From assembly GCF_017348835.2 (NCBI RefSeq), contig NZ_CP071375.1: 64,000 bases of DNA, one strand, 5' to 3'. This document shows positions 45,193-49,844 of the stretch, in pieces; position 1 is the stretch's first letter, and each line of letters opens with the position of its first letter. The notes below the pieces were generated by a model that was not told the origin of the DNA, searched no databases, and saw only the letters and a list, made by a program, of their open reading frames with translations. Source of the stretch: Escherichia coli (lineage in GTDB: Bacteria > Pseudomonadota > Gammaproteobacteria > Enterobacterales > Enterobacteriaceae). The translations under genes were made by a program, and so were the position numbers.

Positions 45193-45306
45193 ATGAACAG
45201 CATACTGATAATCACATCTCTCCTTATCATATTCAGCATTTTTAGTCATGCCCTAATAAAATTAGGGATTGGCATATCCAATAACCCAGACAAAACCGAT
45301 GTATAA
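45193..45306 (+). CDS. Hypothetical small hydrophobic protein (37 aa)
   Basis: [37 protein letters not shown]; one predicted TM helix; weak ribosome-binding site. Confidence 0.3.
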
Positions 45307-45374
45307 GTCAACATATCCTGAATCAGACATACAATATCGCAATGAAAATCAATAATATTTTAAGGAATATCTTC

Positions 45375-45608
45375 ATGAAATCAAAAGACACCCTAAAGTG
45401 GTTCCCTGCGCAGCTTCCTGAAGTAAGAATTATCCTAGGGGATGCTGTAGTGGAAGTAGCAAAACAGGGAAGACCTATCAATACCAGAACATTGCTTGAT
45501 TACATTGAAGGAAACATAAAGAAAAAATCATGGCTGGATAACAAAGAATTATTACAAACAGCGATATCAGTTCTTAAAGACAACCAAAATTTAAATGGTA
45601 AAATGTAA
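45375..45608 (+). CDS. ydfK: Prophage cold-shock-associated small protein
   Basis: ORF starting MKSKDTLKWFPAQLPEVRIILGD after AAGGAA. Confidence 0.75.
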   Translation: MKSKDTLKWFPAQLPEVRIILGDAVVEVAKQGRPINTRTLLDYIEGNIKKKSWLDNKELLQTAISVLKDNQNLNGKM

Positions 45609-45924
45609 TATAATAAACTTACTTTTTTATCATTTTTCCACTTTAACAACATTTTGCTCCACTTTTCCACGACCAAACAACTTGAAATCTGGTTAAAATA
45701 ACACGCAACACTATTCTTCTTCCTTGAGTCCGCCCGGAACTCGAAAAACAAACCGAGTTAAAGCCATTTTTCACAAAATCGATTTTGGGTCTCACCAAAA
45801 TTACGGGGTTGCATACGCATTCGTTTATTTTCGAACGTGTACATACAAATATGCACAAAAATAATCAAAATTATTTTCTGAGATGCATTATGATATGAAC
45901 ACCAATTTCGTATAGAGTCTCACT

Positions 45925-46515
45925 ATGTCTCGAATTTTTGCTTACTGTCGGATATCAACGCTGGATCAGACCACCGAAAATCAACGCCGGGAAATCGAAA
46001 GTGCAGGTTTTAAAATCAAACCTCAGCAAATAATCGAAGAACACATTAGCGGCTCAGCAGCAACCAGTGAGCGTCCTGGTTTTAACCGGTTGCTTGCTCG
46101 CCTGAAATGTGGTGATCAATTGATTGTGACAAAACTGGATCGCCTTGGTTGTAATGCAATGGATATCAGGAAAACAGTGGAACAACTGACCGAAACAGGT
46201 ATCAGAGTGCATTGCTTAGCATTGGGGGGCATTGACCTGACCAGTCCAACAGGAAAAATGACGATGCAAGTAATTTCAGCAGTCGCTGAATTTGAACGAG
46301 ACCTTTTACTTGAACGCACTCATTCCGGGATAGTAAGAGCCCGGGGCGCAGGGAAACGTTTTGGTCGACCACCTGTGTTAAATGAAGAACAGAAACAGGT
46401 GGTATTCGAACGAATTAAGTCAGGTGTAAGTATAAGTGCCATTGCCCGGGAATTCAAAACCTCGCGGCAAACCATTTTAAGAGCCAAAGCAAAACTTCAG
46501 ACACCTGACATATAA
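45925..46515 (+). CDS. pinQ: Serine recombinase (DNA invertase/resolvase family)
   Basis: 196-aa ORF with N-terminal catalytic motif YCRISTLDQ and C-terminal HTH. Confidence 0.8.
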
Positions 46516-46612
46516 AAAATAATCTCGGTGTGAGATGCTTTACGTCTTCCAAGCCACCTTCCTTGCCGTAAATGGAAAGATACATCTAATTATAGAATTT
46601 ATATGTTTTACC

Positions 46613-47188
46613 CTACGGCAGTGCTGGCCATTCAATATCCTGTGCAGTTGACGTATCAACACGGTTCAGCAATACCCGATACTTTTTCCATGCTTCCAGC
46701 AACGAGATTTCTTCCTCCGTTGCAATTTCCAGATCTGCAGCATCCTGAAGCGGCGCAATATGCTCACTGGCTACCTGCATCAGGCTGTTTTTTGTTTCTT
46801 CCGCCTCCCGGATCCGGAACAGTTTTTCTGCTTCCGTATCCTTCACCCAGGCTGTGCCGTTCCACTTCTGATATTCCCCTCCCGGCGATAACCAGGTAAC
46901 ATTTTCCGGTAACGGACCGAGTTCAGAAATAAATAACGCGTCGCCGGAAGCCACGTCATAAACCGTTTTACCCCGATGATCTTCAACGAGATGCCACGAT
47001 GCCTCATCACTGTTGAAAACAGCCACGAAGCCTGCCGGAATATCTGGCGGTGCAATATCGATACTGTTTGCTGGCAGACCTGTATGAGGCGGAATATATG
47101 CGTCACCTTCACCAATAAATTCATTAGTTCCGGCCAGCAGATTATAAATTTTTATGGTCCGTGGTTGTTCACTCATTCTGAATGCCAT
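46613..47188 (-). CDS. tfaQ: Tail fibre assembly protein
   Basis: 191-aa Tfa-like ORF directly downstream of the tail-fibre C-terminus. Confidence 0.8.
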
Positions 47189-48741
47189 TATGCAAGCCTC
47201 ACAATATAGTTAAATGCGATGTTTTTGACGGTGTTTTCCGCGTTACCAGCAGCGTTAACGGTGATGGTATGTCCATGTGAACCAATCGCAACGGAGTGCG
47301 TATGAGCACCAATACCGACAGTATGTGCGTGTGCACCTGCGCTTGCAGCAGTACCCGATACAGAGTGCGTATGAGCGCCTGCAGAAGAAGTGTTAACACT
47401 GTATTTAGAGTAATCAGGTGATCCACTTCCCGGAGCACCACTGGAACCACCTGAAACAAATGTCATCGAATGGGTATGTGCACCGGCTGAAGCAGCCGTA
47501 CCGCTAACACTATGGGTATGCGCACCAGTGTTATTCGTGGATTTAGTGCCGTAATCAAACGACGATGTGGTTTTCGTCCCCAAATCCGTACTGGATACGC
47601 TGGCGCTGTGGGTGTGTGATTTAATGCCGTCCTGTTCCTGAGACAATACGGCTCGATCACTGGCGGGCTTGCCCTTAATCGTCCAGCCACGCATATCCCC
47701 TTTCGTTTTCATCCAGTCTTTGACAATCTGCACCCAGGTGGTGAACGGGCTGTACGCTGTCCAGATGTGAAAGGTCACACTGTCAGGTGGCTCAATCTCT
47801 TCACCGGATGACGAAAACCAGAGAATGCCATCACGGGTCCAGATCCCGGTCTTTTCGCAGATATAACGGGCATCAGTAAAGTCCAGCTCCTGCTGGCGGA
47901 TGACGCAGGCATTATGCTCGCAGAGATAAAACACGCTGGAGGGGTCATCCGGCGTCCATTTGAGGCCAAACGGCGTCTCTTTGTCGCCAAATTTAAGATA
48001 CTGCTCCTCCCCGCAGTGCGGGCAGGCAACATGAAAACGCATAAAATGCGGGGATTCACTGGCTGCACGCTCAATCTGGCAGGTGCCTCTCACTTTGGGC
48101 GTGGAGCCACGGATGGACTTTGGCCAGACCGAGCCTTCAATACGTTTGTCGCCAAGGAACGTCGGAGAGCCTTCCTGTTCAATATCCTCATCAAAGGCAG
48201 CAAGTTCATCATAACCCGCCACATCCACCGACTTTTCACGGTAGTTTTTTGCCGCTTTACCGCCCAGGCACCAGAAGCCACGACCATTGGAAAAACGCTT
48301 CATAGTGAGCGTGTTATCCCGGTGCTTTTTGCCATACCACGGAGCCAGCGCCAGCAGCGACGGAATATCGCGGATGGTCGGCTCAACGTGGGTTTTCATA
48401 AAGTTCTCGGCATCACCATCCGTCGGCAACCAGATAAGTGTGTTGCGCTGCTTATGCTCTATAAAGTAGACATAAACACCCAGCAGCATTTTGGAATAAC
48501 CGACACGGGCAGACTTCACCACATTCACCTCACGGATGTAGTCGCTGCCCATCGCATTCATGATGGCCCGCTGAAAGGGCAGTGTTTCCCAGCGCCCTTC
48601 CTGGTATGCGGATTCTTTCGGGAGATAGTAATTAGCATCCGCCCATTCAACGGCGGTCTGTGGCTCCGGCCTGAACAGTGAGCGAAGCCCGGCGCGGACA
48701 AAATGCCGCAGCCTGTTAACCTGACTGTTCGATATATTCAC
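47188..48741 (-). pseudogene. stfQ: In-frame fusion: lambda gpA-like large terminase N-terminal ~350 aa (47694..48741) joined to a side tail fibre C-terminus (47188..47693)
   Basis: ORF starts [23 protein letters not shown]... (lambda A) to ...[10 protein letters not shown], then switches to His-rich tail-fibre sequence ([20 protein letters not shown]...). Confidence 0.8.
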
Positions 48742-49261
48742 TCAGCAACCCCGGTATCAGTTCATCCAGCGCGGCTGCTTTGTTCATGGCTTTGATGATA
48801 TCCCGTTTCAGGAAATCAACATGTCGGTTTTCCAGTTCCGGAAAACGCCGCTGCACCGACAGGGGGATCCCGTCGAGAATACTGGCAATTTCACCTGCGA
48901 TCCGCGACAGCACGAAAGTACAGAATGCGGTTTCCACCACTTCAGCGGAGTCTCTGGCATTTTTCAGTTCCTGTGCGTCGGCCTGCGCACGCGTAAGTCG
49001 ATGGCGTTCGTACTCAATAGTCCCTGGCTGGAGATCTGTCTCGCTGGCCTGCCGCAGTTCTTCAACTTCCCGGCGCAGCTTTTCGTTCTCAATTTCAGCA
49101 TCCCTTTCGGCATACCATCTTATAACGGCGGCAGAGTCATAAAGCACCTCATTACCCTTGCCACCGCCTCGCAGAACGGGCATTCCCTGTTCCTGCCAGT
49201 TCTGAATGGTACGGATACTCGCACCGAAAATGTCAGCCAGCTGCTTTTTGTTGACTTCCAT
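48716..49261 (-). CDS. nohA: Terminase small subunit (lambda Nu1 homologue)
   Basis: 181-aa [45 protein letters not shown]...; overlaps the A start as in lambda. Confidence 0.9.
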
Positions 49262-49450
49262 TGTTCATTCCACGGACAAAAACAGAGAAAGGAAACGACA
49301 GAGGCCAAAAAGCCCGTTTTCAGCACCTGTCGTTTCCTTTCTTTTCAGAGGGTATTTTAAATAAAAACATTAAGTTATGACGAAGAAGAACGGAAACGCC
49401 TTAAACCGGAAAATTTTCATAAATAGCGAAAACCCGCGAGGTCGCCGCCC
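49262..49450 (-). other. Lambda-type cos site: cosN 12-nt cohesive end at 49439..49450, cosB region between cosN and nohA
   Basis: Minus strand reads CCGACAGGTTACG-GGGCGGCGACCT-CGCGGGTTTTCGCTATTTATGAAAATTTTCCGGTTTAAGG, the lambda end junction, then a lambda-like region up to the Nu1 start. Confidence 0.85.
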
Positions 49451-49649
49451 CGTAACCTGTCGGATCACCGGAAAGGACCCGTAAAGTGATAATGATTATC
49501 ATCTACATATCACAACGTGCGTGGAGGCCATCAAACCACGTCAAATAATCAATTATGACGCAGGTATCGTATTAATTGATCTGCATCAACTTAACGTAAA
49601 AACAACTTCAGACAATACAAATCAGCGACACTGAATACAGGGCAACCTC

Positions 49650-49844
49650 ATGTCAACGAAGAACAGAACCCGCAGAACAACAACCCGCAACATCCGCTTT
49701 CCTAACCAAATGATTGAACAAATTAACATCGCTCTTGATCAAAAAGGGTCCGGGAATTTCTCAGCCTGGGTCATTGAAGCCTGCCGCCGGAGACTAACGT
49801 CAGAAAAGAGAGCATATACATCAATCCAGAGTGATGATGGATGA
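49650..49844 (+). CDS. Small prophage protein, YlcI/YnfO-like
   Basis: 64-aa basic ORF immediately beyond cos. Confidence 0.5.
   Translation: MSTKNRTRRTTTRNIRFPNQMIEQINIALDQKGSGNFSAWVIEACRRRLTSEKRAYTSIQSDDG

Follow-up and report, generated by a model that had tools for sequence, protein, structure and literature searches.

Introduction

The structure 2XGF is reportedly that of the gp37 long tail fibre's receptor-binding tip in bacteriophage T4, which Bartual et al. are said to have described in 2010, and Tetart et al., in 1996 and 1998, reportedly described 'His box' recombination and duplication in the adhesins of T-even phages, in experiments that were carried out with lytic phages under host-range selection. 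Our literature search for the term 'His box' found no paper using the name. In the T4 needle, His-X-His (HxH) motifs contributed by three chains jointly coordinate one ion each, and the needle holds seven iron ions in this way (as cited in PMC6957217 and PMC11705849). His929 and His931 of gp37, together with residues of the tip, are essential (PMC6957217, PMC11705849), and mutagenesis of the tip indicates that its subdomain contacts LPS and OmpC (PMC6957217). Both the C-terminus of T4 g37 and g38 have a lambda-type origin, exchanges take place at conserved motifs of adhesins (PMC3157838), and recombination between lambda and Qin in the stf-tfa region has been put at ~2e-6 (PMC3945230). In the prophage e14, StfE2, once activated by PinQ, is reported to cover an outer-membrane receptor and to prevent phages from adsorbing (Kirigo et al. 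2025, PMC12529663); the P-segment system of e14 depends on a pair of inverted repeats of 16 bp and on two stf/tfa sets in opposed orientation (PMC12529663). Earlier work has already described the metal-binding HxH motifs of gp37/Stf-type tips, together with their modular exchange and the stf-tfa remnant of Qin.

Here we analyse a tip module within a window of 64,000 nucleotides of Escherichia coli DNA (contig NZ_CP071375.1), to which all positions refer. We propose that 47188-47697, on the minus strand, is very probably the remnant of a gp37/Stf-type needle with an exchangeable loop, carried in a TerL'-'Stf chimera of the cryptic Qin prophage.

Results

The minus-strand ORF at 47188-48741 (517 aa, GTG start) ends in a segment of 169 residues (aa 349-517 plus the stop; 47188-47697, minus strand) that comprises the distal part of a collar, a complete needle and the tip. 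It contains seven HxH motifs, into which all 14 of its histidines are paired. In coding order, and all on the minus strand, these are HxH 1, KSHTHS (His376/378; 47605-47622); HxH 2, GAHTHS (His408/410; 47509-47526); HxH 3, GAHTHS (His422/424; 47467-47484); HxH 4, GAHTHS (His457/459; 47362-47379); HxH 5, GAHAHT (His471/473; 47320-47337); HxH 6, GAHTHS (His480/482; 47293-47310); and HxH 7, GSHGHT (His489/491; 47266-47283). Successive motifs are 32, 14, 35, 14, 9 and 9 residues apart and are placed either side of a 29-aa non-repeat loop, which is hypervariable (aa 426-454; 47380-47466, minus strand; delimited by alignment to 2XGF), and a 20-aa unit ending in (T/A)H(S/T) is present twice, at aa 406-425 and aa 455-474. 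The initial annotation had described reiterated His-rich units here, and at the protein level we agree: 100,000 residue shuffles gave a mean of 1.08 motifs, and P = 5e-5 for seven or more. The interval it gave, 47230-47560, encloses six of the motifs and leaves HxH 1 outside, and the feature belongs to the minus strand. Nor does the word 'tandem' suit motifs that are unevenly spaced and interrupted by a loop.

A search of the whole protein against Pfam recovered the 14-aa 'Phage tail fibre repeat' (PF03335, Phage_fiber) with a score of 30.2 bits, above the gathering cutoff of 20 (E = 3.4e-7). The tip segment is skewed in composition to G, A, S, T and H, as might be expected if it were low-complexity sequence that had arisen by chance, or a generic histidine tract for binding metal or nickel with no tie to fibre architecture. 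That account can be given practically no weight and is already refuted by the shuffling result, by full-length homology to a solved fibre tip, by 554 homologous phage records annotated as tail fibres, and by the fibre chaperone gene that lies directly downstream.

The homology extends from end to end. In a phmmer search against the PDB, chain positions 74-242 of 2XGF aligned with query positions 1-168 (E = 2.2e-54) at ~64% identity, with all seven HxH motifs in register and in the same order and spacing. In T4 numbering, which we checked against H929/H931 of PMC6957217, HxH 1 to HxH 7 correspond to gp37 His883/885, His915/917, His929/931, His966/968, His980/982, His989/991 and His998/1000. The phage records recovered by tblastn include T4 gp37 and lambda Stf, the latter matching the full query at 64% identity. 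Homology thus bears out the earlier proposal that HxH repeats bind metal in fibre tips. A match of 64% identity to a crystal structure already fixes the predicted fold of the tip as that of the gp37 needle, and we infer from it that the tip in the window binds metal and forms a trimer, although the bound metal could be other than iron. The loop at aa 426-454 is, on the same alignment, the putative counterpart of the T4 subdomain that contacts LPS and OmpC. Upstream of the needle, the collar domain PF07484 had no match in the chimeric ORF in Pfam, and where a fibre shaft and a complete collar would stand N-terminal to the needle, terminase sequence precedes ...D/MRGW (the slash marks the join). 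With the collar lacking its first part, the remnant might be unable to fold even if it is expressed.

Comparison of motif number among relatives, a check that had been suggested at the outset, shows that it varies: 84 cluster representatives with a complete needle, which amount to 67 unique needle sequences with the window's own included, have between 5 and 8 HxH motifs. Spacing among these 84 is quantised, being 9 aa in 155 cases and 14 aa in 85 cases. Among E. coli genomes, 4,527 have a tip region. When the 67 unique needles are aligned (again counting the window's own), the histidines of HxH 1 are 100% identical, those of HxH 2 are conserved in 99% and those of HxH 3 in 62-63%; across all histidine columns conservation is 62-100%. 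Mean identity across relatives is 0.27 in the loop as against 0.92 in its flanks.

The units had also been said to be encoded by near-repeated DNA, and here the initial annotation went too far. Tandem Repeats Finder detected no DNA tandem array at a score of at least 30 in 47100-47800, and hence none of the head-to-tail DNA copies of at least ~70% identity that would make a tandem repeat. The two 20-aa units share 39 of 60 nt (65%) and use the same codon at 6 of their 19 identical residues. Repeated k-mers were not above a protein-preserving synonymous-codon shuffle, with a fraction of 0.15-0.39 of shuffles reaching the observed count. A DNA repeat search did find a 20-nt repeat family of four copies with 70-100% identity, and exact direct repeats reach 14 nt at most. 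One 20-nt direct repeat has its upstream copy, in the coding direction, at 47360-47379, with the 14-nt exact core GCTCATACGCACTC, and its downstream copy, 90% identical, at 47291-47310 (both minus strand). An E. coli allele (L005) shows an exact 69-nt deletion between these two copies; that the change is probably a deletion and not a duplication we infer on the sole basis that T4 and most relatives have the longer form. We considered whether recent amplification of a DNA tandem array could account for the repeats, which would make them a slippage-prone contingency locus with rapid change of copy number, as the four-copy family, this natural deletion joining two repeat copies and the range of motif numbers among relatives might suggest. 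The lack of a detectable array, the low DNA and codon identity between units and the k-mer counts within the synonymous null all argue against it, as does the fact that 9 of 10 members of the chimera's cluster share one motif arrangement. Moreover, T4 gp37 has the same seven motifs in register, which indicates that the repeats are ancient and that what is maintained is the protein sequence. We regard a recent array as very unlikely and largely refuted. Because the repeats are short (at most 14 nt exact, with the long units 65% identical), exchange between them would have to use short-homology or relaxed recombination, or slippage.

We next consider the loop between the motifs. When the window is compared with six other prophage tips, the conserved DNA blocks that flank the central cassette end on its left at 47507-47549, and in 4 of the 6 at 47507-47513, the 3' end of HxH 2; on its right they end at 47322-47376, and in 4 of the 6 at 47340-47352, just upstream of HxH 5 in the coding direction. 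One relative, P0126, has the identical TerL/Stf junction and another cassette in place of the window's, with HxH 2 at one end and a 12-residue stretch of HxH 5 at the other. The cassette of the window itself recurs in the full-length stfR of strain NT1F10, at 97.6% DNA identity. These alignments indicate that the hypervariable receptor loop is swapped as a cassette whose DNA boundaries lie at His-box codons. Together with the variable motif number, the 69-nt deletion and the P0126 cassette, they support in outline the initial view of the region as a likely site of recombinational host-range change; that view implied a working fibre gene, however, and any such effect would fall on another phage recombining with the remnant.

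The ORF itself, labelled 'phage terminase large subunit family protein' in RefSeq, combines the N-terminal part of a TerL of the lambda gpA type with the side-tail-fibre tip. In the terminase-derived part (~aa 1-348; 47698-48741, minus strand) the ATPase domain is intact (PF05876, GpA_ATPase, over aa 47-285, E = 1.7e-50, Pfam) and the nuclease domain is deleted, with only positions 2-33 of the 294 of the nuclease model left (17.3 bits, below the cutoff of 22.5); a lambda-type large terminase (gpA) would have the ATPase and a complete C-terminal nuclease domain. Intact prophage terL genes match this part at 97-99%, and the match stops at 47694. A three-way alignment of the window with terL of L004 and stfR of L003, together with BLAST breakpoints, places the deletion junction at a microhomology of 4 nt (GATA in the coding strand; 47694-47697, minus strand) that is common to terL (...AAA GGG GAT A/CG) and stf (...CCT GAT AT/G CGT). 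The first 349 codons of terL are thereby joined to the last 169 codons of stf, and the fusion is in frame (...KTKGD/MRGW...). What the initial annotation called a tail-fibre tip is such a tip by homology; the locus has no intact fibre gene, and the 169-aa remnant is fused to a truncated terminase. We note that many fibre tips in the databases are joined to fragments of other phage genes, among them Nu1, DUF1441, capsid E and minor tail Z.

Genes for head or tail are absent from the locus, which is the Qin prophage at ydfJ. The chimeric ORF overlaps nohA and tfaQ in lambda-like fashion. The former (48716-49261, minus strand) is an intact small terminase subunit gene of the Nu1 type (181 aa; PF07471, E = 2.4e-101); the latter (46613-47188, minus strand), whose start overlaps the stop of the chimeric ORF, encodes a chaperone for tail-fibre assembly that belongs to the lambda Tfa / T4 gp38 class, as both its annotation and PF02413 (Caudo_TAP, E = 9.8e-43) show, and so a dedicated chaperone gene stands directly downstream of the tip. 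In a blastn comparison the Qin of K-12 is 98.9% identical to the window from 45000 (ydfK, tfaQ and into the tip) to 47376 in HxH 4, and then diverges. Its own deletion, unlike that in the window, joins the 3' end of nohA to mid-stf and is out of frame, and the two deletions are independent events. Derivation of the window allele from the K-12 Qin allele, or the reverse, was considered and rejected, as each keeps sequence that is missing in the other.

How widely is the chimera kept, and could it be of use to the host? Its 90% cluster has 10 members, of which 8 are full-length (517 or 533 aa), and the remaining 2, one of them a partial record, are shorter at the N-terminus only. At least 80% of the 2.9-kb region is present in 117 complete genomes (~2% of the complete E. 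coli genomes). Such persistence, the retained lambda-like overlaps with nohA and tfaQ, the exchange of the P0126 cassette after the fusion, the joining of many other database tips to phage gene fragments and the precedent of StfE2 and PinQ (PMC12529663) are consistent with the TerL'-'Stf chimera, with tfaQ and pinQ, being kept as an expressed and useful host protein, for example a fibre-tip decoy that would cover an outer-membrane receptor and exclude phages. We nevertheless think this quite unlikely. By expectation 1/3 of random deletions are in frame, and a search based on the tip guarantees a tip in each match, which is an ascertainment bias. Some remnants have lost histidines by substitution (P0124 has H to P and P0006 has H to N), the collar is partly missing, and the independent junction in K-12 Qin is out of frame. 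Promoter-like sites were not enriched either, although the scan of 46400-49700 for promoters and terminators, which was no different from shuffles, is uninformative on expression. The alternative is neutral debris. The chimera is probably without function, an argument made from its context and one to be set beside the intact ORF of most of the 10 cluster members.

Lastly, the serine invertase gene pinQ (45925-46515, plus strand; Pfam Resolvase and HTH_7) begs the question of whether diversity of the tip is made not by His-box recombination but by the adjacent PinQ acting at stf crossover sites, as in the switched segments of the Mu G, P1 C or e14 P type. The gene lies 100 bp past tfaQ, and it has been hypothesised in print that invertases drive the exchange of fibre genes (cited in PMC3945230). 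Scans of the window, however, found near the tip module neither sites of the hix/gix-type consensus nor the e14 pix-type repeat TTGGTTTGGGAGAAGG at up to 3 mismatches, and the inverted repeats in 45300-49400 are only short, chance-like pairs, none of which flank the module. There is one tip-tfa set with no second, inverted one, so that of the parts of an invertase-switched segment pinQ is present, and the crossover sites and the second set are absent. Furthermore, the cassette boundaries lie inside the needle at the His boxes and not at a constant/variable invertase junction, and PinQ has been reported to act in trans on e14 (PMC12529663). We consider switching by PinQ at this locus extremely improbable.

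Discussion

We have found that a complete fibre-tip cassette is concealed beneath the annotation of a terminase. If the tip follows 2XGF, each chain would run outward along the fibre axis through HxH 1-3, form the receptor loop at aa 426-454 and then run back through HxH 4-7. In the trimer each HxH would give two histidines per chain, so that six would coordinate one metal octahedrally on the three-fold axis; with six histidines per ion and seven motifs, seven ions would be stacked (iron in T4). Coordination on the axis would mean that the motifs staple the three chains together and do not bind the receptor. Folding would require the chaperone encoded by tfaQ. Given that the motifs are conserved and the loop is not, the His-box codons and their flanks could act as short homology islands, by way of which the central loop would be exchanged as a cassette, and the needle could become longer or shorter as units are gained or lost, 9 or 14 residues at a time. 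In the window, an illegitimate deletion at the 4-nt microhomology removed everything between terL codon 349 and the last 169 codons of stf, leaving the in-frame TerL'-'Stf chimera in Qin, inserted in ydfJ.

The present role of the remnant is most likely passive, as a donor or recipient of tip cassettes in recombination with other prophages and infecting phages. The natural variants at this locus show His-box codons marking both unit indels and cassette boundaries, and they suggest that dead prophages go on exchanging tip cassettes. Such exchange bears on the prediction of the receptor specificities that therapeutic or temperate phages could gain from host chromosomes.

It is instructive to compare the locus with the systems it most resembles. 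With the PinQ-StfE2 system of e14 it shares a pinQ of the same family that stands, in a cryptic prophage, next to a module of fibre tip and tfa; the 16-bp inverted repeats and opposed stf/tfa sets of e14 are absent from the window. Lambda Stf/Tfa, StfR/TfaR of Rac and StfQ'/TfaQ of K-12 Qin are the same module with the same gene order, stf-tfa-(pin), but K-12 Qin and Rac have other central cassettes and needles of 186 aa and 173 aa, as against 169 aa in the window, and the lambda-type needle has 8 HxH motifs. The tip differs from that of T4 gp37 in being joined to a terminase fragment, with no fibre shaft and without the first part of the collar, and in the sequence of its central receptor loop (29 residues in the window, 32 in T4), so that its receptor need not be OmpC or LPS. 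The C-terminus (26 residues), on the other hand, is identical or nearly so to that of T4, and in both cases a chaperone gene lies directly downstream (gp38 in T4, tfaQ in the window). Finally, while the events at this locus are reconstructed by comparing prophage remnants, unlike those in the T-even adhesins, the two resemble each other: in both, short conserved motifs border hypervariable segments, and the changes in unit number and the swaps of cassettes among relatives of the window tip end at just such conserved motifs.

Results

The His-rich segment forms the end of an ORF of 517 codons with a GTG start (47188-48741, minus strand). Nearby lie tfaQ (46613-47188, minus; a match to Caudo_TAP in Pfam, E = 9.8e-43), pinQ (45925-46515, plus), which encodes a resolvase-type invertase, and nohA (48716-49261, minus), which encodes a Nu1 small terminase (E = 2.4e-101). 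When complete E. coli genomes were searched with megablast, strain PE164 gave an essentially identical match to 46500-49400, and its counterpart is the cryptic prophage Qin, inserted at ydfJ with the gene order ydfJ', ynfT, ydfK, pinQ, tfaQ, chimeric ORF and nohA, followed by genes for lysis and cold shock; the PE164 Qin region has no head or tail genes. In the same search, 117 complete genomes carry at least 80% of this 2.9-kb region. The 517-aa protein of the window is WP_241098365.1 and that of PE164 is WP_269441489.1, which differ at residue 91 (V versus A), so the window stems from a close relative of PE164 and not from that strain. Just upstream of nohA there is a 26-nt inverted repeat (49286-49342; 85% complementary, 5-nt loop), which might be part of a cos region or a terminator, and a terminator-like hairpin was called nearby at 49302-49315 (minus strand).

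In this ORF, which RefSeq names just 'phage terminase large subunit family protein', 349 codons of a lambda-type large terminase gene (terL) run in frame into the last 169 codons of the tail-fibre gene stf. By Pfam, residues 47-285 form a terminase ATPase domain of the gpA type (E = 1.7e-50), only the first 33 of the 294 positions of the nuclease domain are left, and PF03335, the 14-residue 'Phage tail fibre repeat', scores 30.2 bits (cutoff 20). BLAST matches to intact terL genes end at 47694 and those to intact stf begin at 47697, and a three-way alignment of the window, L004 (an intact terL) and L003 (a full-length stfR) resolves the junction to a 4-nt GATA microhomology (47694-47697): terL reads ...AAAGGGGATA followed by CGGGA, stf reads ...CCTGATAT followed by GCGTGG, and the window reads ...AAAGGGGATATGCGTGG. 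A single illegitimate deletion has thus taken out all that lay from terL codon 349 to the final 169 codons of stf. The loss would amount to some 19-20 kb in lambda terms, an estimate from the lambda map and from the lambda match at 21371-21970. The product is not a working fibre, since it lacks the shaft and the beginning of the collar, and the tip gene here is a dead chimeric remnant.

Many E. coli ORFs have the same fibre tip fused to a piece of another phage gene, whether DUF1441, Nu1, major capsid protein E or minor tail Z, or at other terL junctions; among them are the database proteins P0005, P0009, P0044, P0052, P0050, P0055, P0042, P0037, P0045 and P0112. As judged from these sequences, in a sample whose ascertainment bias is uncontrolled, the fusions point to repeated independent internal prophage deletions, all keeping the tip/tfa/pin end.

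Seven His-X-His (HxH) motifs, numbered here in the coding direction, lie in the last 169 residues of the ORF (47188-47697), and all 14 histidines are paired; shuffled residues yield 1.08 motifs on average (P(≥7) = 5e-5). The initial annotation had placed tandem GAHTHS-type repeats at 47230-47560. Repeats are thus real at the protein level, with just six of the seven inside that interval (motif 1 is at 47605-47622), but "tandem" does not describe them, as their spacings of 32, 14, 35, 14, 9 and 9 residues flank both sides of a non-repeat loop; a 20-residue unit ending in (T/A)H(S/T) is present in two copies.

From MRGW onward, the 168 terminal residues match PDB 2XGF, the receptor-binding tip of T4 gp37, from end to end (E = 2.2e-54; chain 74-242, residues 858-1026). 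The seven motifs are in register with T4 His883/885, 915/917, 929/931, 966/968, 980/982, 989/991 and 998/1000, a numbering checked against H929/H931 of PMC6957217. A tblastn search gave the tip module in 554 phage records, T4 gp37 and lambda Stf among them.

We found little support for the proposal that these repeats are encoded by near-repeated DNA. TRF reported no tandem array in the tip DNA, and a repeat search returned one 20-nt family only (four copies, 70-100% identity). The two 20-residue units are 65% identical as DNA, and of their 19 identical residues 6 have the same codon. No exact repeat exceeds 14 nt, and repeated k-mers are not above synonymous-codon shuffles of the same protein (0.15-0.39 of shuffles reach the observed counts). 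So weak a repetition rules out recent DNA amplification and argues that the repeats are old and maintained at the protein level. A terminator-like hairpin called within the tip-coding sequence (47561-47578, minus strand) is probably a chance match, the count of such calls being equal to the shuffle expectation.

A protein search found 624 relatives at E ≤ 1e-10, for which 120 cluster representatives were listed; 84 of these have a complete needle (the receptor-binding end), giving 67 unique needles, the window's own included. Comparison of repeat number among related prophages, which the initial annotation had suggested, gave 5-8 HxH motifs in needles of 140-206 aa (the 84 complete needles). 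In the complete needles among the representatives listed, the distance from one motif to the next is quantised, at 9 aa (155 cases) or 14 aa (85 cases), a spacing of 32 versus 42 aa reflects one versus two copies of a 10-residue unit, and only the loop-spanning spacing is free (33-70 aa). Across the 67 unique needles, conservation is 62-100% in the His columns and 92% in the flanks, and only 27% in the loop. Substitutions that destroy a motif occur in some remnants (GAHTPS in P0124, aligned to 47362-47379; GANTHS in P0006, aligned to 47293-47310) and are consistent with relaxed constraint on orphaned tips.

Three observations tie change in the tip to the DNA encoding the HxH motifs. First, L005, an E. 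coli contig, lacks exactly 69 nt of the window. The end-points of this deletion are 20-nt direct repeats (47360-47379 and 47291-47310) with a 14-nt exact core, GCTCATACGCACTC, and it removes 23 residues and two motifs. Second, against six other prophage tips, a left conserved block (93-96% identity) extends to a point within 47507-47549 (47507-47513, at the 3' end of motif 2, for four of these tips), and a right block (94-99%) starts at 47322-47376 (47340-47352, immediately ahead of motif 5, for four of these tips); between the blocks the DNA is unalignable and HxH motifs are still present in the protein. With K-12 Qin the right-hand block is 98.9% identical by blastn as far as 47376, inside motif 4. 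Third, the 90% cluster of the chimera has ten members, nine with the window's cassette (the variable central part), and P0126 (533 aa) has the identical TerL-Stf junction and a different cassette, bounded by GAHTHS at motif 2 and by a 12-residue stretch at motif 5. An illegitimate junction at 4 nt has very little chance of forming twice, so the gene was dead by the time its cassette was exchanged.

Discussion

Our findings agree with published work that places exchanges in fibre adhesins at conserved motifs (PMC3157838), and in experiments lambda picks up K-12 Qin stf-tfa DNA at ~2e-6 per phage, chiefly via Red-beta (PMC3945230). The suggestion that the tip is where recombination changes host range is supported as regards the recombination, although the gene in which we see it is a dead remnant. 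Could that remnant instead be expressed and useful, for example in masking a receptor as reported for StfE2? Our analysis makes this very improbable. The fusion is in frame, but this is expected in one third of cases and the K-12 junction is out of frame; and while eight of the ten members of the cluster keep their full length (two fall short, at the N-terminus only), the region is present in those 117 genomes, and the chimera gained a new cassette after fusion, the search was conditioned on the presence of the tip.

The proposal that the motifs are a metal-binding scaffold of fibre tips fares well, given their alignment with the T4 histidines. The T4 needle holds seven irons along its length; many residues of the tip surface are essential, as are the histidines that bind the iron (PMC6957217); PMC11705849 gives the same account and notes HxH conservation in lambda. 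By homology, we infer metal binding and trimerisation of the tip. The chain would run outward through motifs 1-3, form the receptor loop (aa 426-454) and return through motifs 4-7, and on the axis each HxH, contributed by three chains, would make up one octahedral His6 metal site. In this role the motifs would be structural staples and the loop the specificity determinant, with TfaQ a putative folding chaperone of the tip.

We also considered an invertase-switched segment and rejected it: pinQ is adjacent, but there is a single tip/tfa set, the window contains no hix/gix-type or e14 pix-type crossover site, and no inverted repeats flank the tip module. PinQ is an orphan invertase here, with no invertible segment in the window. 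It has been reported to act in trans, inverting the e14 P segment and blocking T2 adsorption (PMC12529663, 2025).

Both the HxH scaffold and its role as a recombination site are known biology, and the C-terminus of T4 g37, together with g38, derives from lambda-type sequences (PMC3157838). Closer to hand, K-12 MG1655 Qin (L002 4689-5700, against window 47188-49261) joins the 3' end of nohA out of frame to mid-stf, keeps ~150 more stf codons than the window and no terL, and carries a different tip cassette. The two deletions are independent and neither allele can be derived from the other, so the same prophage at the same site has either decayed separately in two lineages or been partially replaced by recombination.
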